DNA of 64,000 bases from Escherichia coli 042 (GCF_000027125.1 NC_017626.1); one strand, 5' to 3'; positions 7,973 through 20,452 are shown, counted from the first letter of the stretch. Program-made: numbers and translations. The notes: generated by a model from the sequence alone, not told the origin.

Positions 7973-8383
7973 TGTCCTTCTCCTGCAAGAGAATTATTTT
8001 AATTTTCGCTTAATTCAGCGAAACCAAAGTAAAGTGGTCAAGCCCCGCGCTTAGCGCAAGCTTTGGCAGAAGAAAGGACTAAAGCGCGTTGCGCCAGTGC
8101 TGCTCACCTACGAGCAAGATAGTGGATGAGGTACGAAGATGGGTAAATGTAGAAAATAACGTCCTGAACAAATTGTCCATAATATTACAATTATCCGCAG
8201 TGTTGCTTCTCGTCATCGCGGATGATAATTGTCCTCGGTAGTTGAACACGCCTGATTTGTATCATAGCTTAAGAATTAACTCAAAATATTTTCACTTCTT
8301 TACCTGAGCGGTTTGATTTTCGTTATGATGACGGAGCGAAAAAGACATTATTATTAGCAAAGGAAGAAAAAACGGGGACAAGC

Positions 8384-8530
8384 ATGGCAAAGCCGATCAT
8401 CACGCTCAATGGCCTAAAAATCGTCATTATGTTGGGAATGCTGGTCATTATTCTCTGCGGTATCCGTTTTGCCGCCGAGATCATCGTGCCGTTTATTCTC
8501 GCATTATTTATTGCTGTTATATATAACTAA
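8384..8530 (+). pseudogene. tqsA: tqsA 5' fragment (codons 1–45) ending at the island junction
   Basis: Encodes [45 protein letters not shown] then IYN-stop from island DNA; remainder of tqsA resumes at 19546. Confidence 0.8.
8512..8520. repeat. attL core (TGCTGTTAT)
   Basis: Identical 9-mer at 19546..19554; lies at tqsA codons 44–46. Confidence 0.7.
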
Positions 8531-8591
8531 TTTCACTTAACGCATTGATTTAATTAAATGATTTGCACTACAAAAAGTGCCATAAATCGCA

Positions 8592-8650
8592 AAATGACTA
8601 CACCAGTGACTACACCGTTCGGTGCACTGTATGAAACAACGTGGAACAAA
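8592..8650. promoter_or_regulatory. arm-type repeat block (GACTACACC x2), homologous to block near attR
   Basis: atGACTACACCagtGACTACACCg plus shared flanking motifs, matching 19391..19460. Confidence 0.5.
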
Positions 8651-8929
8651 TAGACACAAGAAATATACAGGCGGGTCATCTTTCCAGGGGGAAGCGCGCT
8701 AATTCATGAGGGGCGTTAATGTTGATATGGGGATCCCCATAACGGGGCTACCGGATTTTTTTTCCGGTTAACTGTTAATCAGGCTGGTGGGCTTTACCTG
8801 TTTTGTAGGAGTGGTCATTATGACCATTCAGACAATGACCTTAATCAGAACTTTTCGCTAAAAAATGACGTTGGTCACGTCGTCCGGAAAGCACAAAATC
8901 CCGTCAATTTTTAATTAACGGTTAAACCG

Positions 8930-8990
8930 TCTTTTGTCACGGCGTGTCACTGGTTGTCACTCTCCGTCACGGTATGTCGCTACTCGTTAA
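8930..8990. repeat. helically phased TGTCAC/GTCAC array (about 5 copies)
   Basis: tgtcacggcgtgtcactggttgtcactctccgtcacggtatgtcgc, ~10–11 bp spacing; at 3' end of the leftmost island gene. Confidence 0.45.
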
Positions 8991-9268
8991 CGCCGTAACC
9001 GCTCCGGCTTCTTCCAGTGGTACGTAATTTTCTCCGTTTCCCGATACAGTGCCACGCGGCGATTGTAGGCCAGCATTTCAAGAACGCGGATCCGTATGTT
9101 GCGCATATCCACATCATTAAGCTGGATACCATCACGGCGCATCACCTCAGCAACCACACGCGCGTAATTTTCGGCGGTCACGCTGTCCGGCTGCGTGGCC
9201 TGTTCGTCATGCTGCTGGCTGATTCCGGTAACGCGGCGGATTAATCCCAGTAGTTCGGCTTCTGTCAT
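8987..9268 (-). CDS. hypothetical protein (93 aa)
   Basis: ORF 8987..9466 trimmed to Met MTEAELLG; upstream part of the track ORF is read-through of the cos repeat. Confidence 0.45.
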   Translation of the reverse strand: MTEAELLGLIRRVTGISQQHDEQATQPDSVTAENYARVVAEVMRRDGIQLNDVDMRNIRIRVLEMLAYNRRVALYRETEKITYHWKKPERLRR

Positions 9269-9301
9269 TGTGCCCCCATCGCTCTGATAGTCTGGTGTCG
9301 T

Positions 9302-9365
9302 CGGGTCCTTCCTGGAATTATGGCCCGTTACGGGGCGGCGACCTCGCGCGTTTTCACTATTTATG
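9302..9365 (+). other. lambda-type cos site, copy A (cosN GGGCGGCGACCT at 9333..9344)
   Basis: cgggtccttcc...gttacg|GGGCGGCGACCT|cgcgcgttttcactatttatgaaaattttt matches remembered lambda cosQ–cosN–left-end sequence. Confidence 0.75.
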
Positions 9366-9547
9366 AAAATTTTTCGGGATCCATGTCCGGTTTCTCTGCA
9401 AGTTAACCATATGAAAAATATAAAAACATGCTTTCCATGAACCGGACATGCGCAAAAAACAGACACTAAAACCGGACATCGAACCAGTTAACCGAAAGTG
9501 TGCACAAATCACATGCATTGCTGCGAGTGATTAACAAGTTATCGGCT

Positions 9548-9982
9548 TTACTGTTCTGTATCGGCTGATTGCTCCATGCTGGCACGGCGAACGCTTATGG
9601 CATGACGCCACCCAGCCAGAAAGCCAGCCATTTTATTTCGTGCCTTGCTCACATCTTCCGGTGAATAGCCGTAAATCTGCAAACCTTCATCAAATCGATG
9701 TTCTGTTTCTTCACTGGAGTACTCGTCACGCTCAGATGAAAGCAGCCTGGCAAACATAATTTTTTCCAGCGCACTGGTTTCTACGTGATATCTGATGGTC
9801 TCAAGACGGCTTTTACCTGAAGACCAAAGCAATGTATGCCCGATGTGATAACCGCCAGACTTTCCGCGATCCGCATTAAGATACGGCATCCCCTGTTTGG
9901 TCCATGCGCGAATAGTGGTTCTGTTAACCTTGAAATGTTCAGCTATTTCCTGCTGACTTACAAAACAAGCTTTATCAATCAT
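9548..9982 (-). CDS. Nu1-like small terminase homolog (N-terminal HTH); possible packaging-redirecting protein
   Basis: 144 aa; VSQQEIAEHFKVNRTTIRAWTKQGMP resembles lambda Nu1 VNKKQLADIFGASIRTIQNWQEQGMP; flanked by cos copies. Confidence 0.7.
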   Translation of the reverse strand: MIDKACFVSQQEIAEHFKVNRTTIRAWTKQGMPYLNADRGKSGGYHIGHTLLWSSGKSRLETIRYHVETSALEKIMFARLLSSERDEYSSEETEHRFDEGLQIYGYSPEDVSKARNKMAGFLAGWRHAISVRRASMEQSADTEQ

Positions 9983-10050
9983 AATGTTACCTTAACTGCA
10001 TGGTTAAATATTAATCAAGTGGTGGTGGTGTCACCTTCACGGAAAAACGT

Positions 10051-10114
10051 CATAAATAGCGAAAACCCGCGAGGTCGCCGCCCCGTAACGGGCCATAATT
10101 CCAGGAAGGACCCG
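10051..10114 (-). other. lambda-type cos site, copy B (cosN at 10072..10083), inverted relative to copy A
   Basis: Reverse complement is cgggtccttcctggaattatggcccgttacgGGGCGGCGACCTcgcgggttttcgctatttatg; ~90 bp upstream of the Nu1-like start. Confidence 0.75.
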
Positions 10115-10117
10115 TAA

Positions 10118-10138
10118 AAAAGCCGGATTTCTCCGGCC
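10118..10138 (-). terminator. rho-independent terminator after the 137-aa gene
   Basis: Minus strand gccggagaaatccggc followed by T-run; same hairpin recurs near 12390 and 12759. Confidence 0.6.
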
Positions 10139-10143
10139 TTGTC

Positions 10144-10557
10144 TCAGATGTTTTTCAGTATGCGATCGATGTCGCCGTCATCGCCCTGGTTTCTGCCATC
10201 GTATGCCATGCCAGCTGATACGGCTTGCGGGCTGTGCATGTCCATAAAGTTTTCAAAGGCTGCGGTAAGTTCCGGCGCAACCTTCGGACGTTCCTGCTCT
10301 ATGGTCATGCTAAGGATGCTTTTAGCCGTACCAACATCGATACAAGGCACGTTTGCCATTGCACGCAACAGCGGCTGATAGTCTTTATGCTCATGAAGCG
10401 CCATAATCGCATCAGCGCGCGGCTTGTCCTGCTCTTCCAGTTTGTTTAGTTGATGTACGGCCTCATAGGTTGATAAACCTCTGTCAGCCATTGCCCGCGC
10501 TTCGACTTTAAATTTACTCGCCAGCGGTAGCGTCATGATGCTTTCATTCGTTGCCAT
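10144..10557 (-). CDS. hypothetical protein (137 aa), last gene of capsid operon
   Basis: ORF; tightly packed after the gpD-like gene. Confidence 0.5.
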   Translation of the reverse strand: MATNESIMTLPLASKFKVEARAMADRGLSTYEAVHQLNKLEEQDKPRADAIMALHEHKDYQPLLRAMANVPCIDVGTAKSILSMTIEQERPKVAPELTAAFENFMDMHSPQAVSAGMAYDGRNQGDDGDIDRILKNI

Positions 10558-10569
10558 CGTTCCCCCTGC

Positions 10570-10905
10570 TTATCGGGCCAGCGGCTGAACGGATACGCCG
10601 GAACCCGCAAAGGCGGCGCATTTTTTCGCATCGGTGTCGACGCTCTCAGGCCAGTTAACGGCGGCAATATTGAATATCCCCGTCTTGTAACACTGTGCTG
10701 ATTTCTGCTTTGACGTGTCCACAGGGTACGAGGTCAGATAAACAGCCTTGCCAGATTCCTGACCATCCCACGGCTTAAACTCGCCATTGTCTGCCAGCAT
10801 CAGCGGGGTAAATTCCTGAATAACGCCAGCATCAGCGGCAAAATGTACCAACGTCGTGGATACCTGCTGACTGCCTGCAAATAACTCAATGTATGGAGTG
10901 TCCAT
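10570..10905 (-). CDS. head decoration protein, lambda gpD-like
   Basis: 111 aa; TPLMLADNGEFKPWDG...KTGIFNIAAVNWPESVDTDAKKCAAFAGSGVSVQ parallels lambda gpD (110 aa). Confidence 0.72.
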   Translation of the reverse strand: MDTPYIELFAGSQQVSTTLVHFAADAGVIQEFTPLMLADNGEFKPWDGQESGKAVYLTSYPVDTSKQKSAQCYKTGIFNIAAVNWPESVDTDAKKCAAFAGSGVSVQPLAR

Positions 10906-10917
10906 AGAATCCCCCCG

Positions 10918-11973
10918 TTAACCAATTTTGACGGTAACAAATTTGCGAATATCTGCCGGTACCGGCTGCGGTGCACTGTGTGTCTGCACGTACTCAATCG
11001 CCGGATCGCCGTCCTCAATCCAGTTTTTCGGGTAAAACATGTTTTGTGTTGCGCCCGTTCTTACCGCTTCCTGATCCATTATCGCACCATAGGCCACCAG
11101 CCCTTTATTGTTGGTGTTACCCAGGACCAGCAAATCAGGCTCAAGGAAATATTTTTCGGTACCATCGCTGTCAGTGTATTTGCCGGAATAGACGATAAGG
11201 GCCAGATCACCAAGATAGCCTTTAAAGCTCACCACTTCGCCCAGGTTTTTACAGGCCAGTTCGGCGGCGGATTCTGAACCACGGGAAAGATCGTACAGCT
11301 CACGGAATTTTTTAAAGCTGCGTAATGTGCGCCATACCTCAGCGCCCATAATCATGACGTTTGCGGGGCAACCAGCCTGATCAGCATAAAGCTCGATGTC
11401 ATAGATTGGGTCGTGCATGTCTTTATCCTGCTCGGACCATTTTTTACCCTTGGCCTGCTCTATGATGCAGTTTTCCGGTATTTTCCAGTCGATTTCATAG
11501 CGTTCTATGCCTTCGCCCTCAATGATGTTTTTTCCGGTCGTTACCGCATTCACCGCCAGCCATTCCACGCGTGCCTTAATGGCGTTTATCTGGCGGCGCA
11601 TGTTGCCAGTAATCAGGCGCATACGGCGATAGGTAGGGTCGTTAAGCTGTGCCGGATCTTCTCCAGCCATGCGCATGATGGTTTTCGTTGGATCGATTTC
11701 GTGCTTTGGCTTCATGTAGCCAGGTTTGATTGTGCTGGTTTCGTACCCTTTATCGCGCTGAACCTGGCTACCCACCATAGGCGAACAAAACGCCGACATG
11801 GTGACTTCTTCAATGTCCAGGGTATCCAGCATGATGTTTTGCGTGCTGAATGTCGCCACGTTCGGGAAAAACAGCGTGGTAAACAGAGGGCTGAATTTAA
11901 AATCCGCAATATCCCCGCGATTCAGGTACATGAAAAGCTGGTTAGTGTTAAGTGCCGTTGCTTTGCCTGCCAT
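10918..11973 (-). CDS. major capsid protein, lambda gpE family
   Basis: 351 aa (lambda gpE is 341 aa); adjacent to gpD-like gene. Confidence 0.75.
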   Translation of the reverse strand: MAGKATALNTNQLFMYLNRGDIADFKFSPLFTTLFFPNVATFSTQNIMLDTLDIEEVTMSAFCSPMVGSQVQRDKGYETSTIKPGYMKPKHEIDPTKTIMRMAGEDPAQLNDPTYRRMRLITGNMRRQINAIKARVEWLAVNAVTTGKNIIEGEGIERYEIDWKIPENCIIEQAKGKKWSEQDKDMHDPIYDIELYADQAGCPANVMIMGAEVWRTLRSFKKFRELYDLSRGSESAAELACKNLGEVVSFKGYLGDLALIVYSGKYTDSDGTEKYFLEPDLLVLGNTNNKGLVAYGAIMDQEAVRTGATQNMFYPKNWIEDGDPAIEYVQTHSAPQPVPADIRKFVTVKIG

Positions 11974-12212
11974 TATTCACCCCCATAATTTTTATGCATC
12001 CCAAGCGCCGCAAGTAAATAAGAGCGTACAAGTGAACCTATCGACGGCTCCGGCGTCATCAGCGGATCCAGTCCAGCCGCAACGCCAGCTTCATAGTTTT
12101 TTTTGTGGCGCTGCTTGAGCACCTCCACGATTTCGGGGCTTATGTACACCGAAACACCGCCTTTTTTCTCTTCAGCCATAGTAAGAAATTCCTCTTCGAC
12201 TAAAAAAATCAT
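11973..12212 (-). CDS. hypothetical protein (79 aa, or 68 aa from internal Met), first gene of capsid operon
   Basis: ORF; stop overlaps capsid start (ATGA). Confidence 0.45.
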   Translation of the reverse strand: MIFLVEEEFLTMAEEKKGGVSVYISPEIVEVLKQRHKKNYEAGVAAGLDPLMTPEPSIGSLVRSYLLAALGMHKNYGGE

Positions 12213-12235
12213 AACTGGATGTTTATCCAGTTATG
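12208..12235. promoter_or_regulatory. 12-bp inverted repeat (tcataactggat-gttt-atccagttatga) overlapping capsid-operon start codon
   Basis: Perfect 12-bp arms with 4-bp spacer; AT-rich region with further palindrome ttgcattttatgcaa just upstream. Confidence 0.5.
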
Positions 12236-12344
12236 ATTATAATCAGAATTGCATTTTATGCAATGATATTGAGTTATGTTGCAAATTATGAAATGATTAT
12301 CCCGATCACGAACGCCAGTGCATCCAAAAACCTCATATGCAAAA

Positions 12345-12410
12345 GCCCGATAAGAACCCTCTGACCTTATCGGGCTTTTTTTGGGCGCAAAAAAGCCGGA
12401 TTGCTCCGGC
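12345..12410. terminator. tandem hairpins (bidirectional terminator region, approximate)
   Basis: gcccgataag...cttatcgggc + T7, then aaaaaagccggattgctccggc. Confidence 0.55.
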
Positions 12411-12430
12411 TATGTGTGCTGTGTGCTGGC

Positions 12431-12655
12431 TCAGTCTCTGATCTCTTTCAGAAATTCTATCAATGCATCTATCTGTTCAGGATTTACCGCCAGCATTTCA
12501 CCGGATAGAGCACATCTCACAAAACCATGCTGATCCTTTTCAATCAGTGCGCCCGTCTCCAGGAATGCGCGGTAATCATTGATGCTCATCGTCTCCATGT
12601 TGTCAGCATGGTATTTATCACGCTGTTTTAATATCTCATCAAATTTCATCGGCAT
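12431..12655 (-). CDS. hypothetical protein (74 aa)
   Basis: ORF followed by terminator hairpin. Confidence 0.45.
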   Translation of the reverse strand: MPMKFDEILKQRDKYHADNMETMSINDYRAFLETGALIEKDQHGFVRCALSGEMLAVNPEQIDALIEFLKEIRD

Positions 12656-12758
12656 TGTTTTTTTCCTCTGTTGTGTCTGTTTGTTTCAGATAGTAACTAT
12701 GCCTGACCGTGACGAAAACCCGGTAATGCGCCATACCGTTTCAACTGGTGCAAAAAAA

Positions 12759-12774
12759 GCCGGATTTCTCCGGC
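12759..12774 (-). terminator. rho-independent terminator after PerC-like gene
   Basis: aaaaaaagccggatttctccggc. Confidence 0.6.
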
Positions 12775-12781
12775 TGTTTGA

Positions 12782-13054
12782 TTAGCTGTCCTGGTAATTG
12801 CGCCATATTTCATCACCAGCACCATCTATACCCATTTCGGCATAAGTGCGATCGACTGCCTTTTTCAGGTCTCCGAAATTATCCGGCGGCTCCGGTGCCC
12901 TCTGTGCCTTCCTTGAACATTCCAGCCGTCGCATCGTGATGTGATGCCGTTCCTTGTCTGTCTCCACCAGCTGCATGACTTCACCCCATCGCGCCGCCGC
13001 CCTCCGGTAAAAGCCTTTCGCCTCCAGTTCCTCCGCTATGCGGTCATGTACCAT
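12782..13054 (-). CDS. PerC-family transcriptional regulator-like protein
   Basis: ORF 12782..13174 trimmed to Met MVHDRIAEELEAKGFYRRAAARWGEVM, which resembles the PerC/Pch motif LExxGxWRRAAxRW. Confidence 0.55.
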   Translation of the reverse strand: MVHDRIAEELEAKGFYRRAAARWGEVMQLVETDKERHHITMRRLECSRKAQRAPEPPDNFGDLKKAVDRTYAEMGIDGAGDEIWRNYQDS

Positions 13055-13064
13055 CGTCACCCCC

Positions 13065-13475
13065 TCAGAACGAAATATCATCACCGTAAGGGTCATCGCC
13101 TCCCGCTGGTGGCTGATTACCCTGTGTGCCTGTGGTTTTGCGTCTGTTCCCGCCTGGACGTGCCGCGCGGGCACTGATTACGCTGTCTGCGATAACCTGC
13201 CAGCCCTGCCGCGTTTCTCCGTTCTGTCCGGTCCACTGGCTTACCTGCATCGTGCCGGATACGCTGGCAACATCGCCTTTTTGATGTTTAGCCAGGAAGT
13301 CGGCCTGTTTGCCAAATGCGATGACCGATAACCATAACGTCGCCTGTCCGTCCTGTGCCTGGCTGCATGGCAAAGATACCGCCATACGCGCCAGCGTCAT
13401 CGGTGTGCCCTTGCTGGTCTGTTTTACCTGCGGGTCGTCCACCAGCCGCCCGTAAGCGGCTATCTGTGCCGTCAT
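13065..13475 (-). CDS. ssb: single-stranded DNA-binding protein
   Basis: 136 aa; OB-fold segments parallel E. coli SSB; Gly/Pro-rich tail ending DDPYGDDISF (compare DFDDDIPF). Confidence 0.8.
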   Translation of the reverse strand: MTAQIAAYGRLVDDPQVKQTSKGTPMTLARMAVSLPCSQAQDGQATLWLSVIAFGKQADFLAKHQKGDVASVSGTMQVSQWTGQNGETRQGWQVIADSVISARAARPGGNRRKTTGTQGNQPPAGGDDPYGDDISF

Positions 13476-13753
13476 AATTCCACCTCTCCGGTTTTAACGT
13501 TGATGGTTGTTACCTGTTCCGCTTCGGCAATCTCCCGTTCTGTCAGCGTGGCAAAGTTTGCCGCCGCCGTGGTCATGAATGCGCTTATCAGGTCGGGATG
13601 TTCCTTCGCGTATCCTTCCCGCGTGTGGCGGTCTATCGTTCTGATTGCCACCTTTAAGGTGTGCTCAGTCATGTCTAACGCTTTATATTTTGGCTCTGTT
13701 CTGTCTCTGCGTTTTTGGGTCATTTCTCGCAACCTCTCACTTTTTCGCCTCAC
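13472..13753 (-). CDS. hypothetical protein (93 aa)
   Basis: ORF overlapping ssb start by 4 nt; 5' end overlaps iteron region. Confidence 0.4.
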   Translation of the reverse strand: MRRKSERLREMTQKRRDRTEPKYKALDMTEHTLKVAIRTIDRHTREGYAKEHPDLISAFMTTAAANFATLTEREIAEAEQVTTINVKTGEVEL

Positions 13754-13925
13754 TTTTTCAAGCGTCTCACTTCGTCGCAGTTGGGATTTTCGGTTTTTCT
13801 ATGTGTGTGTTTCATAAGTATTTTTTTACCCCTCACTTTTGAGGATGTATACAGGTCGAAAAGTGAGGGAGAGCGGGCTAATTTTGGCCCTCTTTCTATC
13901 CCCCTCGCTTTTGCTCCTCACTTTT
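13733..13925. repeat. candidate replication origin: CCTCACTTTT iterons (about 6 direct, 1 inverted) with AT-rich spacer
   Basis: Iterons at about 13733, 13748, 13764, 13829, 13859 (inverted), 13901, 13916; directly 3' of the replication ATPase gene. Confidence 0.6.
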
Positions 13926-15324
13926 ATAGCGGCGCTACATCATCCCCATCGATACGAATAACCCCATCTTTTTCCAGCTTGTACAGCCAGCGCCGGAAGT
14001 TTTTCATTTCATACCCCAGCTTTTTCATGTCATCACGTAACAGCGGGATCGTGCACTTGTCGCCGTTCTGTGTGCGTGAACGGATGCACCCCCATAGCGC
14101 GGTATGGTTTTCCGTCTTGTTCCCTGCCTCCTCGATGCGCTCCAGTTCAACAGGAGGGCGCGGATCATCCACCACCACCAGCGACGTGATTAATTCACCG
14201 TCAGCGTCGGTAAAAAGCTCCACCACGCGTAAGTCATATGCGGCTTCTTTGAGTTCCTCCGCGTCCTTCATTTTGGTGCATGAGATAACCAGCGCTTCGC
14301 TTCCTGCGTCCTCCCTGCGTATCCGGTATTCAGCATCCAGCGAAGCACGAAATGCACTGGAACCGCGCGCGCCTTTCGTCTCATCCTTGCCGGAATGGTG
14401 AACCACCAGCACCGTGGCCCCTGTGCGTCGTTTCAGTTCGTCACAACCACGGATAAACGCCCCCATATCACGGGAATCATTTTCATCATTCCCACCAAAG
14501 CAACGCGCCAGCGTATCCAGAATAATCATGCGTACAGGTTTACCCGTTTCCCGCTCCACCTGACGGGCAGCGATAACCATTTCATCAACATCAAGCGGGG
14601 CAGCCGGAAAGATGGGGCGGTTTACCAGATACAGATTTTTCACCTGCTCATCGTGCACAACCTCCCAGGCTTTTACACGACGCGGAACACCTATACCGCC
14701 TTCACCAACCACATAGAGAACCGCACCATGTGCAACCCTGCGGCCTCCCCACTGGCGACCAGTGGCAACATGGCACGCCCACGATCCAGCAAGGAATGAT
14801 TTATAGGACCCGCTAGCCCCGTATATGCTGCATAGCGATACCGCCGGAATAATCCCCTTAACCACGTAATCCAGTTGCGTGTCGTATCCGGTAGATCCAA
14901 CGCTCATCGGTAGCGTGGTTTTTCGCTGGTGTTTTTTTTCTTCCGCCGGCTCTTTCCCGCGCACCCGTTCCAGGTATTCGCGCCAGTTCTCCCGCATATG
15001 GCTGTGCATCCCTTCGGGGTAATAATTCGCATCAGTTACACCCGCCGCCGCCAGCTTGTGCGCAATGGCATTAATATTTGATGGCCTGATGTGGCCTGCC
15101 TTGTACAGCCGGACACAATAGCGCCCCTCGTCGATGATTCTCAGGTCTGCCAGTTCATCCAGTTGATCATCAGCCAGCACAACGGGAGGCACATTATCGC
15201 CAGCCAGTCGCCCGTCCTGTTCCTGCCACTGTTTCGCATGTGCCCAGGCATCACTACCCGCAAAAATAATGACTTCGGTCATCTTGTCGTAAGGCTGTTT
15301 TTTTAAGTTCGGTGCGCTTTTCAT
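13924..15324 (-). CDS. replication protein, RecA-fold ATPase / helicase-like (primase-replicase candidate)
   Basis: 466 aa; Walker A GASGSYKS, Walker B MIILDTLARCFGG, VLVVHHSGK motif typical of phage/plasmid RepA or DnaB-like ATPases. Confidence 0.75.
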   Translation of the reverse strand: MKSAPNLKKQPYDKMTEVIIFAGSDAWAHAKQWQEQDGRLAGDNVPPVVLADDQLDELADLRIIDEGRYCVRLYKAGHIRPSNINAIAHKLAAAGVTDANYYPEGMHSHMRENWREYLERVRGKEPAEEKKHQRKTTLPMSVGSTGYDTQLDYVVKGIIPAVSLCSIYGASGSYKSFLAGSWACHVATGRQWGGRRVAHGAVLYVVGEGGIGVPRRVKAWEVVHDEQVKNLYLVNRPIFPAAPLDVDEMVIAARQVERETGKPVRMIILDTLARCFGGNDENDSRDMGAFIRGCDELKRRTGATVLVVHHSGKDETKGARGSSAFRASLDAEYRIRREDAGSEALVISCTKMKDAEELKEAAYDLRVVELFTDADGELITSLVVVDDPRPPVELERIEEAGNKTENHTALWGCIRSRTQNGDKCTIPLLRDDMKKLGYEMKNFRRWLYKLEKDGVIRIDGDDVAPL

Positions 15325-15620
15325 TTCTTGCCCCTGAATCCGTTAACCATGGTTTTCAGCTTCTGGATGTTTGCCCGTGCCCTGGCGTTGCTGGTGGGCA
15401 CGTTATGCGGCGCGGTCTGTACCAGAGAAAAATCACGCCGGAACTGATAAACAGGCATCACGCAATCATATTCGTAACCTTCACGGCGGTAGGTTACGCG
15501 CCGTTCTTCCACGTCCTTAATCATTACCGTGCCGCCGTACTGGTCGCGGTAAATATCACCGCGCGTAAATTTAGGGTGAGTGTTGCCACTGGCAGTTAAG
15601 CCAGAATATTTAAGTTTCAT
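15321..15620 (-). CDS. hypothetical protein (99 aa)
   Basis: ORF overlapping rep start by 4 nt. Confidence 0.45.
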   Translation of the reverse strand: MKLKYSGLTASGNTHPKFTRGDIYRDQYGGTVMIKDVEERRVTYRREGYEYDCVMPVYQFRRDFSLVQTAPHNVPTSNARARANIQKLKTMVNGFRGKK

Positions 15621-15625
15621 TATTT

Positions 15626-15859
15626 TTATTCTCCGGTGTGCTGTTCTTTATATCTGTCGTGCAATAGATCTATTTCTTGCAGTTCCATTATTACAGGCTC
15701 AAGAAGCGTTATTAATGCTGTGGCAATTCTTGATTTTTGTTTGTCGCGTTCATTGTCGCCAAGTGTTTCAAGCCATATGCGCAATATTTCCATCATGTTT
15801 TCACTGTGAGAAAGTGCAAGAAATGCGCGGTCTATTGTTTGGTGGTAAATATCACGCAT
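15626..15859 (-). CDS. hypothetical protein (77 aa)
   Basis: ORF in operon context. Confidence 0.4.
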   Translation of the reverse strand: MRDIYHQTIDRAFLALSHSENMMEILRIWLETLGDNERDKQKSRIATALITLLEPVIMELQEIDLLHDRYKEQHTGE

Positions 15860-16319
15860 GGCTTACATCCTCAGGAAATTTTCTTCTATAACGCGCCTCT
15901 GCCACATATTCCGCATAATCGGCGGCGATATTCAGTACATCAAGCCCCGTTGATTTATATTCTCTCGTGGAAAGTAAGAAAAAAGCCGCTCTAATAAGTT
16001 CTGGCATTGACGAAAGCGCATCAGCCGCATCATCAGGAACGCCGGAAAATTCCTGTTTCAGGGAATTAAAACGATCATCACGCATAACCCCCCCCCCATT
16101 TTCACAATCAGCAATCAGGATAGCTTTGGCCTCATTCAGCGCCGTATCAGCACTAAATTGCATGACAGCCAGTGAGTGAGGAACGAAAGCACCGGCATAT
16201 TCTGTTTCGCTGGTGGCGTGCTTATGTGCCCTGTCCGCGATAACAGAAATATCAATCAGCGCGTGCATCAGCGTTTTGATGGCTTCGGCGGCTGCGTCCG
16301 GTGTGGTTTTATTGTGCAT
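15852..16319 (-). CDS. hypothetical protein (155 aa) containing a G10 homopolymer
   Basis: ORF; codons GGG-GGG-GGG at 16088..16097. Confidence 0.45.
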   Translation of the reverse strand: MHNKTTPDAAAEAIKTLMHALIDISVIADRAHKHATSETEYAGAFVPHSLAVMQFSADTALNEAKAILIADCENGGGVMRDDRFNSLKQEFSGVPDDAADALSSMPELIRAAFFLLSTREYKSTGLDVLNIAADYAEYVAEARYRRKFPEDVSHA

Positions 16320-16521
16320 AAAGCATCCCCTGAATATTCGTGTTAATCATTCCGGCACGTTTTGTGATTTCCTGTAATGATTCCCTTGTGGCGACAATTG
16401 CTTCATCTGGTAAGTGGTAATTACACACCACGCGACCTTTATCCACATTGACCAGTAGCTGCCCTGTGAATTTCTCACGAAACTGAATGCGGTTAAGGTC
16501 AGTAAGTGACAGATTAATCAT
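16309..16521 (-). CDS. hypothetical protein (about 70 aa from internal Met MINLSL)
   Basis: ORF 16309..16563 starts at GTG; ATG at 16521 is the likelier start. Confidence 0.4.
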   Translation of the reverse strand: MINLSLTDLNRIQFREKFTGQLLVNVDKGRVVCNYHLPDEAIVATRESLQEITKRAGMINTNIQGMLYAQ

Positions 16522-16711
16522 GGCGCACCTCCTGACGAATACGGGCGGCAAATACAGCAACACAACCGGACGGGCAACGGTTACGCGCTTCGCGTTCCGT
16601 CCAGGCGGTTACGTGGATGATTTGAGATTCTCCGGCACTCAGTGCCAGAAAACGCCACACAAAGGCCGTTTGTGTGTGTACAAGGTGTGGTATATGATTT
16701 ACAGCAACCAT
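16514..16711 (-). CDS. hypothetical small protein (about 65 aa), first gene leftward of regulatory region
   Basis: ORF 16514..16786 trimmed to Met MVAVNH. Confidence 0.3.
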   Translation of the reverse strand: MVAVNHIPHLVHTQTAFVWRFLALSAGESQIIHVTAWTEREARNRCPSGCVAVFAARIRQEVRHD

Positions 16712-16803
16712 AACGGCTCCTAGTTTACGTTGTTGGTTAGAAGCCCTGCGAGTGGTAACGACACTTGCGGGGCTTTGTCTTTTCATCGATTACCTTGATA
16801 AAG

Positions 16804-16884
16804 GTGTCAGCCACTATATTAGTAACGGGTGTCAGCCACGTCAATAGTGTTTTTCCGTTTTCTTGTGTGTATACTGTCAGCCAC
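16804..16884. promoter_or_regulatory. divergent regulatory region with three direct repeats GTCAGCCAC
   Basis: Repeats at 16806..16814, 16831..16839, 16876..16884; tatact box and aggaaa RBS precede the plus-strand small gene. Confidence 0.6.
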
Positions 16885-16905
16885 CTAATAACGAGGAAAT
16901 CAGAT

Positions 16906-17085
16906 ATGGCAACAAAAGCAGTTAATGCAAAATCCAAAAAGCTTGAGGCTCGAGTACCACACGCAATAGCTGATGCTGTAGAAAATTTAAAGGAAGATGG
17001 CGAAAGTACAGGGCAATTTATCGTTTCGGCACTTGAAGGCGAGATCAAACGCCGCCAGCGCCGCAAGGCCAAAGAATCAGAATAA
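16906..17085 (+). CDS. small ribbon-helix-helix-like DNA-binding protein (59 aa), candidate island regulator
   Basis: KKLEARVPHAIADAVENLKEDGESTGQFIVSALEGEI resembles Arc/CopG RHH; transcribed divergently from the leftward gene block. Confidence 0.5.
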   Translation: MATKAVNAKSKKLEARVPHAIADAVENLKEDGESTGQFIVSALEGEIKRRQRRKAKESE

Positions 17086-17127
17086 TCACTATCAGCGCCG
17101 TGGTGTGAGGTATTACGGCGCATTGCT

Positions 17128-17316
17128 ATGCAGGACAACACAATGACCGATAAAGAATTGACCAAAACATTATCACCGGCACGGAAAAGACGGCGCAGAA
17201 AGATAGAGCATGAATCAGAAAGATTCGCACCATGTGCTTTTGCCCTTGAGCAATTCCTTAAAGAGTACAGGGAAAAGCGCTCATTGCAGGTATGGCAACG
17301 AACTGAACCAGACTGA
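17128..17316 (+). CDS. hypothetical basic small protein (62 aa)
   Basis: ORF downstream of RHH gene; Arg/Lys-rich. Confidence 0.35.
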   Translation: MQDNTMTDKELTKTLSPARKRRRRKIEHESERFAPCAFALEQFLKEYREKRSLQVWQRTEPD

Positions 17317-17394
17317 TTGCATTGCCCACCAGCCTGATAGCGGCTATCATCCCCGTGCTTATGTTTGGGATCACACACACAAACGGCGCAGCGG

Positions 17395-17430
17395 GTTATC
17401 TGTTCAGAAAGGCGGCTCCATTTCGGGGCC
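17395..17430 (+). terminator. candidate terminator of the plus-strand pair (approximate)
   Basis: ggcggctccatttcggggccgc followed by tttttta. Confidence 0.45.
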
Positions 17431-17585
17431 GCTTTTTTTATACCTGAAAAACCCCAATTTTGTTGTTTTTCAGTTTCACCAGGGCGAACGAATCCCCGCC
17501 CACGTTCTGGCGTATATTCAATCTTCATGGTTATAGCTCTGTGTTCAGATGATTGATGTGTGGCGGCTGCGTGCCGCCAGCGTGA

Positions 17586-17774
17586 TTAATGAACTGCCTT
17601 GCAGCTATCCTTCCAGGCCAGAACCTCGGATAAAGACCAGCCAACGGAACGACCGCCAAGTTTACGACGTGATGGGAATTGTCCGGCCTTTTCCAGGCGG
17701 TAGCGACACGTACGGCTAAGGCCGGTTAGTTTTTCGCATTCTTTTTCACGTATAAACCGATCAGTGCTTAACAC
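17586..17774 (-). CDS. alpA: AlpA-family phage transcriptional regulator / excisionase-like
   Basis: 62 aa; LTGLSRTCRYRLEKAGQFPSRRKLGGRSVGWSLSEVLAW matches AlpA HTH pattern. Confidence 0.8.
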   Translation of the reverse strand: MLSTDRFIREKECEKLTGLSRTCRYRLEKAGQFPSRRKLGGRSVGWSLSEVLAWKDSCKAVH

Positions 17775-18140
17775 TATTGCCCCCCCTTTCGTTTCTTAAA
17801 GAGTCATCAGGTGTCTTATTGTGTCGTATTGTTCCCGCTAGAGTGATGAATGGCAAATATTGAGGATGTATGATTTACAGAAAATGAAACAGTAAGAATA
17901 AAATCTTTTAAATTCATGTTAATACAAAGGCATAAAATATTGTTTCATGCCTTTTTTCTCGCTCTTTAAAGAGTGATTCGCTAGTGTATAAAAAACCAGT
18001 GACACATTAAAAATCAGCCACTTATAAATCTGTATGCTTTTTCGCCTCTTGTTCGTGGTTGTTCCACATTGTTGCTCATTGTTGCACGTTGTATCTGTTC
18101 GCATATACAGTATGCGCATACTGAAAAAACACGAAAAAAA

Positions 18141-19370
18141 TTATTTTCTTCTGGCTACTGGTAGCGTGGTTACGTTTTCATGTGTTCCCGCCAGTATCCC
18201 TAACCGCTCCGTCCACATATCCAGCGCATTGCGTTTAGCATCCAGATAACGGGAATGATTATAAACTCGCTGCATTCCTGGCATCTGGTGGCCTGTAAGC
18301 TGCTCCACGACATGCGGATCAACGCCTAAATCGTTCAGCATGGTTGTAAAGGTGCGCCGGATGTCATGCAGTGACCAGTGAGGATGATTAAGCCTCCTGT
18401 GCGCTAATCTTCCATACTGCGATACGCTGGCCTCCTGTTTCACTTCCCCCAGCAATAAGCCCGTGTGCCTGTTCTGCTCCACCAGCTGCGTGACGAACGG
18501 CAGGATCGCTTCCGGTATGGGCCGGAATATTGCGACCTTCGTTTTGCTGTGCTCCTTCGGAACGGTCCATAGCATTTCCGTAAAATCCCACTCCCCGATC
18601 TCCGATAACCTCAGTTCTACCGTTCTGGCTCCGAAGACAATCAGGAGGCGGATTAACGCGACGTAGTAAGGGGAGAATATTTTTTTGTCCAGTGCCTGCA
18701 ATAATTCGCCAAGTTCTTTGTTACTTAAGACACGTTCGCTTATATCCGGTTTTTTCCCAACGTCCGCCACGTTCAGATCGTCCAGAACGTTGCTGATTGC
18801 ATAGCGCCGCCTACGGCAGAACTTAAGCGCCTGTTTGCACGCCTGTAGCACGAATCCGGCAGTAACAGGCGTTCGCTTTGCCACCTGGTCAAAACAGGCC
18901 AGCCAGTGCCGTAGCTCGCATTTATCCAGCGGCATAGCACCAATCTGCTGTATTACGTGATTATTAAGTCGCCTTTTCAGGGCGATATAATCCACGCGGT
19001 TTTCCTTTACGTAATACTCAAGCCAGTAGGTGAGCGCATCGCCAACCGTTACCGGCTTTAACGCTTCCTGTACGGTGTAATTAAGCTCATGACGTGGATT
19101 TTTCCCCTCTGCCAGCCATGCGCGACACTGGGCGGCTTTTTCCCTGGCTGATTTCAGGCTCAGATCAGGATAACTTCCCAGCTTAATGCGTTCGGGTCGT
19201 GTCTCCCTTCCCGTTCCGGCCCTGTATGTGAAATACCAGGTCAATTTCCCTGATGTTAAATATTTCACGCTCAGGTTTCCGCCATCACTATAAAACGTGT
19301 TTTTCTCCGCTGGCTTACCATGAAGTTTCCTTAGCAAGGTATCGCTCAGTTTGTTCATTGCTCTGCTCAC
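18141..19370 (-). CDS. int: tyrosine site-specific integrase (P4-like, N-terminal arm-binding domain)
   Basis: 409 aa; C-terminal HDIRRT...GHQ...VYNHSRY catalytic motifs; adjacent to attR. Confidence 0.9.
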   Translation of the reverse strand: MSRAMNKLSDTLLRKLHGKPAEKNTFYSDGGNLSVKYLTSGKLTWYFTYRAGTGRETRPERIKLGSYPDLSLKSAREKAAQCRAWLAEGKNPRHELNYTVQEALKPVTVGDALTYWLEYYVKENRVDYIALKRRLNNHVIQQIGAMPLDKCELRHWLACFDQVAKRTPVTAGFVLQACKQALKFCRRRRYAISNVLDDLNVADVGKKPDISERVLSNKELGELLQALDKKIFSPYYVALIRLLIVFGARTVELRLSEIGEWDFTEMLWTVPKEHSKTKVAIFRPIPEAILPFVTQLVEQNRHTGLLLGEVKQEASVSQYGRLAHRRLNHPHWSLHDIRRTFTTMLNDLGVDPHVVEQLTGHQMPGMQRVYNHSRYLDAKRNALDMWTERLGILAGTHENVTTLPVARRK

Positions 19371-19390
19371 GTTTTACCCCCTCTTTACGA

Positions 19391-19460
19391 AAAAGTGACT
19401 ACACCAGTGACTACACCGATCGTTGCACAAAGGGCTACAACGTGAAACAAGCTGGAACAA
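19391..19460. promoter_or_regulatory. arm-type repeat block (GACTACACC x2) between int start and attR
   Basis: gtGACTACACCagtGACTACACCg at 19397..19417, homologous to 8592..8650. Confidence 0.5.
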
Positions 19461-19545
19461 GGAAAATCACAAATCTGTTGATAATCAAAAACATAATGCA
19501 CAGCCTGAAACATTATGAAACAGCAAAAAACACCAAATGATAAAA

Positions 19546-19554
19546 TGCTGTTAT
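19546..19554. repeat. attR core (TGCTGTTAT)
   Basis: Identical to 8512..8520; in-frame stops TGA TAA immediately upstream. Confidence 0.7.
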
Positions 19555-20452
19555 TCTTAACCCGCTGGTGCAACACATGGTCCGCTGGCGAGTGCCGCGT
19601 GTACTGGCGGTGTCGATTTTGATGACCATCATCGTGATGGCGATGGTGTTGCTGTTAGCTTATCTGGGTTCCGCGCTCAACGAGTTGACGCGGACGTTAC
19701 CGCAATATCGCAACTCTATTATGACGCCGCTGCAAGCGATTGAACCGTTGTTGCAACGCGTAGGGATTGATGTCTCAGTTGACCAACTGGCGCATTACAT
19801 TGATCCGAACGCGGCGATGACGTTGCTCACCAACTTATTGACGCAGTTATCTAATGCCATGTCATCAATATTTTTATTGCTGCTGACGGTGCTGTTTATG
19901 CTGCTCGAAGTGCCACAATTGCCCGGAAAATTTCAGCAAATGATGGCGCGTCCGGTTGAAGGGATGGCGGCGATTCAGCGTGCGATTGACAGTGTTTCTC
20001 ATTATCTGGTGCTGAAAACAGCCATCAGCATCATCACCGGCCTGGTCGCCTGGGCGATGCTCGCCGCACTCGATGTTCGCTTCGCTTTTGTCTGGGGATT
20101 GCTGGCCTTTGCGCTTAATTACATCCCTAATATTGGTTCAGTTCTCGCAGCAATTCCCCCTATCGCTCAGGTACTGGTGTTTAATGGCTTCTACGAAGCG
20201 TTGTTGGTGCTGGCGGGATATCTGCTGATTAATCTGGTCTTCGGCAATATTCTGGAGCCGCGCATCATGGGACGTGGGCTGGGGCTTTCGACATTGGTGG
20301 TATTTTTGTCGTTGATTTTTTGGGGATGGTTGTTAGGACCGGTGGGTATGCTGCTTTCCGTGCCGTTGACAATTATTGTCAAAATTGCGCTTGAACAAAC
20401 AGCGGGAGGTCAAAGCATCGCCGTTCTGTTAAGCGATCTCAATAAAGAGTGA
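19546..20452 (+). pseudogene. tqsA: tqsA 3' portion (codons 44–344), separated from its start and promoter by the island
   Basis: In-frame continuation [14 protein letters not shown]...; track ORF 19568..20452 begins at an internal GTG. Confidence 0.8.

Follow-up and report, generated by a model that had tools for sequence, protein, structure and literature searches.

What is encoded between the regulatory region and the replication gene of a small integrated island in Escherichia coli 042 (GCF_000027125.1, NC_017626.1), and does an undescribed function directed at phages lie there? The question concerns positions 15321-16711 of the window, by which we mean the whole stretch of 64,000 nucleotides that was analysed. 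A first-pass annotation had placed five uncharacterised open reading frames (ORFs) at these positions and regarded them as the best candidate location for a helper-interaction or anti-phage function. All five ORFs, here called A to E, were found at exactly these limits on the minus strand, and both RefSeq annotation and selection back them. The block is real but largely ordinary, as it is an instance of an element that is already known. Judged by its gene content, it is the standard early region of the family of phage-inducible chromosomal islands (PICIs) described in 2018 (PMC6092414; see also the preprint on capsid-forming PICIs, 10.1101/2022.09.08.507074), and work on rgdR, which belongs to it, goes back to 2012. 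The block and the gene that follows it consist of these features:

16514-16711, minus strand: ORF A, 65 amino acids (aa), Icd-like, isoelectric point (pI) 9.0, opening the leftward early operon, preceded by an AGGAG Shine-Dalgarno sequence at 16717-16721
16309-16521, minus strand: ORF B, 70 aa, pI 7.9, phrog_340, accessory (21 of 74 related loci)
15852-16319, minus strand: ORF C, 155 aa, a fusion of C1 (16089-16319) and C2 (15852-16085), acidic, modelled as helical
16088-16097, minus strand: poly-G tract, G10 on the coding strand
15626-15859, minus strand: ORF D, 77 aa, acidic, phrog_2196, modelled as a helical hairpin
15321-15620, minus strand: ORF E, 99 aa, RgdR-family DUF4222 protein, pI 10.05, with RGD at residues 20-22 and K35
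13924-15324, minus strand: replication gene (rep), a RepA-family helicase of 466 aa, into which the block is translationally coupled

The identity of the block follows from that of the island, which spans 8595-19418 (10.8 kb) in an E. coli chromosomal context formed by pntAB, mdtIJ and tqsA. The latter, the gene of the autoinducer-2 (AI-2) exporter, is split by the insertion. The island is delimited and opened by the following features:

8595-8617 and 19396-19418: attachment-site direct repeat of 23 bp, TGACTACACCAGTGACTACACCG, at the two island ends
18141-19370, minus strand: int, the integrase gene
17586-17774, minus strand: alpA (62 aa), the PICI activator gene, phrog_2790 and phrog_66, 92% identity with AlpA of EcCICFT073

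On the minus strand, int is followed by alpA, a stretch of about 800 bp with two plus-strand genes, the five ORFs, the RepA-family helicase and the rest of the island. The annotation of EcCICFT073 starts with the integrase, a helix-turn-helix protein (AlpA), a small ORF and a YlcI/YnfO-family gene on the opposite strand, continues with an Icd-like gene, four small hypotheticals, a DUF4222 gene and a primase-type Pri-Rep, and ends with a single-stranded DNA-binding protein (SSB), PerC, capsid, decoration protein and three more small ORFs. From int to the capsid-E and decoration genes, the window island matches this order gene for gene. The identities amount to 91% for Int, 92% for AlpA, 46% for A, 51% for C1, 90% for C2, 87% for D, 92% for E, 98% for SSB, 97% for the capsid, 98% for the decoration protein and 91-99% for the last late ORFs. 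The sequence features expected of a Gram-negative PICI are present: co-oriented int and alpA at one end, rep, a short late region, a size of about 10-15 kb, an attachment site of its own with flanking direct repeats in the form of the 23-bp repeat, and relatedness to characterised members, as given by the EcCICFT073 identities. On this comparison, the island is a close relative of EcCICFT073, the prototype E. coli PICI. Helper-phage induction, replication and high-frequency transfer have been demonstrated for EcCICFT073 and EcCIEDL933 (PMC6092414; 10.1101/2022.09.08.507074). The early region of the cf-PICI EcCIEDL933 (O-island 51) can be likened to the block as well, and O157:H7 genomes hold the A-E block at 99.5% nucleotide identity.

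There are also several differences between the window island and EcCICFT073. The Icd-like protein (46%), C1 (51%) and the YlcI-like protein (66%) are differing alleles, and the operators read GTGGCTGACA in the window and GTGGGCCACA in EcCICFT073. ORF B has no counterpart there, its position being occupied by an unrelated 76-aa ORF, and C1 and C2 are fused in the window (G10) but split in CFT073 (G8). Rep is a RepA-family helicase in the window and a primase-type Pri-Rep in EcCICFT073, and only the first 125 aa are common to both (62% identity). Finally, the window island is integrated in tqsA, whereas the CFT073 copy lies between roxA and phoQ.

The ORFs of the block are maintained as genes. 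RefSeq annotates the same genes as A to E in near-identical islands, and each of them is under purifying selection, with ratios of non-synonymous to synonymous polymorphism (pN/pS) of 0.27-0.48 at pS 0.18-0.40 when up to 145 loci related to them, drawn from IMG/VR and from E. coli genomes, are compared. The tight packing and overlap that had been noted at first reading are borne out by the stop and start codons, as four of the five junctions overlap (ATGATTAA, ATGCACAATAA, ATGCGTGA and ATGA). In 162 of 163 loci, a count that includes some contigs twice, the last of these, ATGA, combines the stop of E with the ATG of the gene that follows, which is rep wherever the DNA reaches that far. Gene order and junctions show A-B-C1/C2-D-E-rep as a single, translationally coupled operon behind a promoter flanked by putative operators. 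By comparison with its relatives the block is one of six small genes; five ORFs rather than six are seen here because the G10 tract fuses two of them, and the count of five separate ORFs has to be corrected in this respect.

Co-occurrence across related islands had been proposed as a check on the block, and it showed a common rather than a rare arrangement. Part of the block is present in 1811 of 5426 complete E. coli genomes (about a third), and at least 80% of it in 280. Where an Icd-like gene and E occur together (74 loci), the interval between the two measures 0.23-1.6 kb and contains only ORFs below 170 aa; this slot is occupied by C in 71 loci, by D in 73 and by B in 21. Tandem Icd-like genes, two or three in number, are found in some islands. 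An island of E. albertii represents a minimal version consisting of an Icd-like gene, one 61-aa ORF, an RgdR-like gene and Rep; it was the only locus retrieved by a contig scan using E, for which seeding by exact peptides was too strict. A tblastn search of the ORFs against 50,697 phage records returned a single weak match, to a 16.5-kb 'induced prophage', which indicates that the ORFs are not common to bona fide phages at BLAST level. In PHROGs all five ORFs fall into families of unknown function; two Icd-like families are labelled 'transcriptional repressor', a label whose evidence could not be traced.

The first-pass annotation had found no motif in any of the five ORFs. This holds for B, C and D but not for A and E, which homology searches put into named families. 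ORF E is, by homology, a protein of the RgdR family. It matches Pfam PF13973 (DUF4222) with an E-value of 1.8e-22 over model positions 1-53 of 53, shares 92% identity with the DUF4222 protein of EcCICFT073 (presumed to be C1493) and is one residue apart from the O157:H7 protein WP_000770178.1 (D36 vs G36). RgdR itself (ECs1581, O-island 51 of E. coli O157:H7 Sakai) has 99 aa, a pI of about 10 and an RGD at residues 20-22 (PMC3378721, Flockhart et al. 2012). It activates LEE1 of the enterocyte effacement locus (LEE) and the type III secretion system, represses motility and binds DNA without sequence specificity, and C1493, its orthologue in CFT073, acts likewise (PMC3378721). Proteins of the RgdR family have pleiotropic effects as modulators of transcription (PMC3378721). 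The traits of RgdR, namely a length of about 99 aa, basic character, RGD at 20-22, K35 and a conserved core at 20-68, are all found in ORF E, which, like ECs1581, is encoded immediately before rep on a P4-like or PICI island. The two proteins are not identical, as D10 and H45 in the published residue list of ECs1581 correspond to A10 and R45 in ORF E. In view of its likeness to RgdR, ORF E might affect LEE and motility.

Within the family, the RGD tripeptide varies (NGD, PGD, CGD, HGD and NSD occur among relatives), and the near-invariant DUF4222 core reads GDI[YF][RK]D.YG...YRR[ED]GY[ED]YDCVMPVYQF.RDF.LV. The model of ORF E contains an SH3/Tudor-like barrel and a C-terminal helix; PDB searches with the five concatenated proteins and with an RgdR profile yielded nothing significant. 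RgdR has been stated to be 'encoded by all the analysed E. coli PICIs' (PMC6092414). The present analysis gives this virulence regulator its native setting, that is as the last gene before rep. Since its stop codon so regularly overlaps the start of the next gene, the effects on LEE and motility might be by-products of a role in the satellite cycle. A co-evolution of RgdR with the N-terminus of Rep was considered and rejected, as either Rep type can be accompanied by a nearly identical E. A promoter-like site within the operon, upstream of E (15715-15687), was rejected too, because such sites are within chance expectation. As a side observation, a 79-aa DUF4222 protein is encoded beside excisionase remnants in the lambdoid prophage at icd of CFT073 (stretch L165, 15192-15431), and DUF4222 is therefore not confined to satellites.

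ORF A belongs to the Icd family according to its match to NCBIfam NF033153 (64.8 bits, cut-off 25) and its similarity to Icd of phage P1 (37% identity over 52 aa in BLASTP, E-value 2e-7), with which it has the motif WRF...A.TE.EAR..P.G in common; a block of cell division by A would be in keeping with this membership. The pN/pS of ORF A is 0.29-0.44, and the AlphaFold model from the concatenated run contains a weak beta-beta-alpha-beta unit.

The immI region of P1 (c4 RNA, icd, ant1/2) resembles the window in that a small ORF of the Icd family is translated first in the operon. According to the P1 record, Icd is 'apparently required for expression of ant', and an RNA controls the icd ribosome-binding site. 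This site is an antisense RNA target in P1, and in the window a conserved terminator in antisense orientation is placed over the same region. The P1 RNA is, however, processed from the sense strand, whereas the RNA proposed for the window would be cis-antisense. P1 has ant after icd where the window has small ORFs, RgdR and rep, and control in P1 uses the C1 repressor, while a YlcI-like protein with its operators would be involved here. Neither a c4/isrK RNA (Rfam, 8000-20000, E ≤ 1) nor an antirepressor gene downstream of A was found.

On the sense strand, a terminator-like hairpin (16656-16676, minus strand; CACACAAACGGCCTTTGTGTG followed by GCGTTTTCTG) lies 35-55 nt inside the icd-like ORF, and at the equivalent place the other main icd allele can form a hairpin rich in GC (CCCGCAAGGGCGGG). 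This hairpin may be a translation-dependent attenuator, or it may be due to chance.

The 155-aa ORF C is, from the comparison of alleles, two genes of about 77 aa each that are joined by a hypervariable poly-G tract. C1 and C2 are separate proteins in EcCICFT073 and most relatives, and in the nearest complete genome a deletion of 2 bp in the G-run results in two ORFs. Tract lengths in 49 loci were G7 (14 loci), G8 (19), G9 (12), G10 (3) and G11 (1). A fused protein of 154 or 155 aa results from G7 and G10, and a split pair from G8, G9 and G11; with G8 the first frame ends as ...GGGYA-stop, overlapping an ATG (ATGCGTGA), and with G9 it reads on for ten codons. C2 retains an ATG of its own, and both halves are open in every tract state. 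Four finished genomes show three tract lengths, namely O157:H7 with G7, CFT073 and 14EC001 with G8 and the window with G10. Among the PHROGs, phrog_2512 spans the full length of ORF C, and phrog_5146 and phrog_24341 cover one half each. Relatives of ORF C are few: 1.84 billion cluster representatives, searched exhaustively, contained only 51, most of which correspond to just one of the halves; the 154/155-aa form is a large family in its own right. No description of the poly-G tract was found in the literature searched.

That the fusion is a sequencing or assembly artefact, or that some of the ORFs are non-functional relics, is hardly credible: homopolymer length is error-prone in some chemistries and frameshifted or fused gene calls are frequent among the database matches, but all ORFs are under purifying selection, both halves stay open in each tract state with C2 keeping its own start codon, finished genomes differ in tract length, and the long form is itself a large family.

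Less can be said about the remaining properties of B, C1, C2 and D. The last three are acidic (pI 4.8-5.3) while B is near-neutral, and in 73 of the 74 related loci D is the gene just before the RgdR-like one. An AlphaFold2 model of A, B, C and D joined by linkers was poor (predicted local distance difference test, pLDDT, 52.5). Structure prediction, a check that had been proposed together with homology searches, thus left B, C1, C2 and D with models of low confidence or unresolved.

With respect to the junctions between the small genes, we observed that a junction ...CATGCGTGA, which reads ...HA-stop and MRD..., recurs at 15855-15862, at 16080-16087 and at gene ends in related loci, and that many alleles terminate in ..HA, ..YA or ..HTGE. 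These recurring junctions look like recombination linkers that might allow a shuffling of small-gene cassettes between islands.

Upstream of ORF A lies a control region with the following features:

16805-16884: divergent control region between A and the plus-strand gene at 16906-17085
16844-16816: leftward promoter TTGACG-17-TAATAT, sigma-70-like
16805, 16830 and 16875: three exact direct repeats of 10 bp, TGTCAGCCAC
16870-16875: candidate -10 element of a rightward promoter, TATACT
16906-17085, plus strand: YlcI/YnfO-family protein of 59 aa (NF041551, 58.5 bits, cut-off 30), with the same annotation in CFT073
16740-16786, plus strand: conserved hairpin with T-run (hairpin 16740-16776), intrinsic-terminator-like, antisense to the operon

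The first-pass annotation was right in placing the block between this region and the replication gene, and the zone corresponds to the dynamic 'Bro' zone of Gram-negative PICIs as described by Williams and co-workers (PMC10111431). An immunity module of the P4 or Bro-zone type was not detected, as Pfam found only DUF4222 in the five proteins and Rfam no CI-seqA (C4/isrK) RNA. Repeats 1 and 2 bracket the leftward promoter and repeat 3 abuts the TATACT hexamer. The YlcI-like protein appears by inspection to be ribbon-helix-helix (RHH)-like. In 52 loci, 24 distinct versions of it were found that form about a dozen types, each with its own triple-repeat motif, and this motif tracks the YlcI-like type regardless of the alpA or icd-like allele. 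Two types with the common N-terminal stretch NNKSQQLNARFPH also have the operator core ATTCAC in common; by inference, this stretch would be the DNA-reading strand of the RHH fold. Such a co-variation of protein and repeats is, on comparative grounds, the signature of an immunity pair of repressor and operator. The YlcI-like protein is therefore a candidate for the repressor of the early operon and for the missing immunity determinant of E. coli PICIs. The silencing of Gram-negative PICIs and their helper trigger have been called unresolved in the literature. For EcCICFT073 it is known that helper-induced AlpA switches on the genes downstream of alpA and is needed for induction (PMC6092414).

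The conserved hairpin is placed between the leftward promoter and the Shine-Dalgarno sequence of the icd-like gene. Folding favours the plus strand in 25 of 26 variants, with a mean of -24.0 kcal/mol against -17.4 kcal/mol on the minus strand, because G-U pairs of the plus strand turn into C-A mismatches there. RNAalifold on 20 variants gave 13 pairs, eight of them with compensatory double changes and many of them G-U pairs. The hairpin is probably an intrinsic terminator for a predicted transcript that runs antisense across the start codon and the ribosome-binding site of A. A candidate -10 element of this transcript is conserved some 80 nt upstream of the terminator; it reads TATGAT or TATAAT and, in one group of alleles, has a TG upstream. 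The prediction is accordingly an antisense RNA of about 80 nt over the ribosome-binding site and ATG of the icd-like gene. In the window, the candidate TATGAT near 16693-16698 is weak and overlaps coding sequence.

Two further observations concern the stretch between ORF A and alpA. A basic protein of 57-62 aa (phrog_21027) is encoded at 17128-17316 on the plus strand, opposite a cysteine-rich minus-strand ORF of 263 aa (16737-17528) that some RefSeq records list as 'hypothetical protein'. We rejected this ORF as a gene, as it is intact in few related loci; it is probably spurious because the opposite strand carries two conserved genes.

How could the block act? The reading that we favour, and hold with moderate confidence, is that it makes up the part nearest the promoter in the early (replication) operon of an EcCICFT073-type PICI. 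In the integrated state, the YlcI-like protein would keep the operon down, and a short antisense RNA ending at the plus-strand terminator may also cover the ribosome-binding site of the icd-like gene. Expression of AlpA, triggered by a helper, would lead to expression of the operon. The Icd-like protein might then stop cell division, and its translation may license the downstream genes, as in immI of P1. RgdR, produced in step with Rep, could serve as a general transcription cofactor or one associated with DNA or RNA polymerase, to which the modelled SH3/Tudor-like barrel with its basic helix would be suited, and leaky expression of RgdR would account for the phenotypes that are known for LEE and motility. 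B, C1, C2 and D would be protein-binding accessory factors for host take-over or replication rather than an anti-phage system.

Several results weigh against this reading. An rgdR deletion has a phenotype in uninduced enterohaemorrhagic E. coli (PMC3378721), so that rgdR must be expressed without deliberate helper induction, at least leakily; this fits leakiness or an internal promoter, and less neatly tight repression. E at 98% identity is found with an identical RepA and also with a primase-type Rep (62%), and as the E alleles do not co-vary with the rep type, there is no support for a specific partnership of RgdR and Rep. The antisense RNA has no promoter above the scan threshold, the best being TTGTGT-17-TATGAT with 8/12 matches, and Rfam gave no match in 8000-20000 at E ≤ 1, hence no RNA of the c4, isrK or CI type. 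For a role of B, C1, C2 and D as accessory factors, no sequence match was found in Pfam, NCBIfam, PADLOC or PDB. When the AlphaFold2 models are taken part by part, the helices of C reach pLDDT 56-81, C1, C2 and D are low-confidence hairpins or bundles and B remains below 30, and Foldseek on the concatenated model retrieved only generic four-helix bundles at E > 0.1.

A more far-reaching possibility, which we regard as rather unlikely, is an undescribed switch similar to an immunity system. It would consist of allele-specific YlcI/YnfO RHH-like repressors, triple operators and a cis-antisense RNA, with C1, C2 and D as satellite-specific binders of helper or host proteins whose stoichiometry or fusion is varied at high frequency by the poly-G tract. 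If this were true, Gram-negative PICIs would have their missing 'repressor' in this switch, and a phage satellite would be seen to carry a phase-variable element. The co-variation of operators and RHH-like proteins and the antisense terminator are directly testable candidates for the silencing and triggering of PICIs.

It is unlikely that the block is a helper-interaction or anti-phage module, in which one or more of the small proteins bind a protein of the helper or of a competitor phage to sense, derepress or block it. The position matches the dynamic zone of the Gram-negative PICIs (PMC10111431), and C1, C2 and D, being small, acidic and modelled as helical, would suit protein binders. Their families are tiny and restricted to satellites (51 representatives among 1.84 billion, one weak match among 50,697 phage records). 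In phage P4, epsilon and orf151 sit upstream of alpha, and this equivalent position also counts in favour of such a module. However, no family of PADLOC-DB matched the five ORFs or five neighbouring genes at E ≤ 0.1, and no homologue has a demonstrated phage target. C and D, present in 71 and 73 of the 74 loci, form a near-universal core of the lineage and not a swappable cargo, and the slot never holds an ORF above 170 aa. EcCICFT073 has its own homologues of C1, C2, D and E, and in this island the loss of rppA (c1503, late region) alone brings lambda plaquing back nearly to the level without the island (PMC6739421). C1, C2, D and E are therefore not needed to explain the interference with lambda. 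The interference screen of that study cloned singly only the genes after ori, and the early genes were never tried alone (PMC6739421), so that the small proteins might still act against other phages or in helper sensing. In sum, we found no sign of the anti-phage function that had been proposed for the block, while the evidence speaks neither for nor against an interaction of B, C1, C2 and D with a helper.

Somewhat less likely still is a lysogenic-conversion ('moron') module, that is an expression of the block in the integrated state which, together with the PerC homologue, retunes LEE, motility and curli of the host and serves the partnership of host and island instead of a lytic-type cycle of the island. 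Deletion of rgdR or of OI-51 (O-island 51) lowers type III secretion, adherence and colonisation of sheep without deliberate helper induction, C1493 of CFT073 is equally active, and ORF E retains RGD 20-22 and K35, residues shown to be important (PMC3378721). A PerC-family gene (12782-13174) is also located on the island. Yet RgdR-family genes are also present in commensal and in LEE-negative strains (PMC3378721), the RGD is not conserved throughout the family, and the overlap of the E stop with the rep start (162 of 163 loci) points to a role that is primarily in the cycle of the island itself. Such a module would account for E, but not for A to D.

The favoured reading of the block as the start of an early replication operon has parallels in other elements. 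The left operon of P4 (kil/eta, CI RNA, cII, epsilon, orf151, alpha) likewise places small early genes before the replication gene of a satellite of the integrase/AlpA type. Its first ORF is toxic, and its translation is tied to the read-through of transcription. The P4 features Bro-N domain and CI/seqA RNA were not detected in the block of the window by Pfam and Rfam, and among phage records P4 shows no sequence similarity to the ORFs of the window. PICIs and P4 are regarded as separate lineages (PMC6092414). With respect to the predicted RNA, the P53as RNA of P1 is a short antisense transcript at the start of the first early gene that ends at an intrinsic terminator (P1 record), like the RNA predicted for the window. 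The latter is predicted from the orientation and conservation of the terminator. The sar RNA of P22 immI is a terminator-ended RNA, too, and exerts cis-antisense control of toxic early genes.

What remains of interest are the four small proteins without an assigned role and the control elements next to the block. The families of B, C1, C2 and D are narrow and satellite-restricted, and simple expression tests on them are apparently unpublished.

Beyond the block, the replication gene is followed on the minus strand by a 93-aa ORF, SSB, a PerC-family gene and a short late region:

12782-13174: PerC-family gene
8987-11973, minus strand: late region encoding a lambda-E-type capsid of 351 aa and a decoration protein of 111 aa, besides two ORFs of 137 and 144 aa

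The late region is devoid of portal and terminase genes, and its genes are 96-99% identical to those of EcCICFT073. RppA (c1503), which redirects TerS, is presumably one of the small late-region ORFs. The N-terminal part of Rep (about 125 aa) is 62% identical between the RepA-helicase type of the window and the Pri-Rep of EcCICFT073 (stretch L166, 6742-8496), and a DUF927-type Rep of E. albertii opens with the same N-terminal sequence. At the ends of the island, the N-terminal part of tqsA (about 50 codons) lies to the left of 8595 and the remainder to the right of 19418, and RefSeq labels tqsA as partial where the same island adjoins it.

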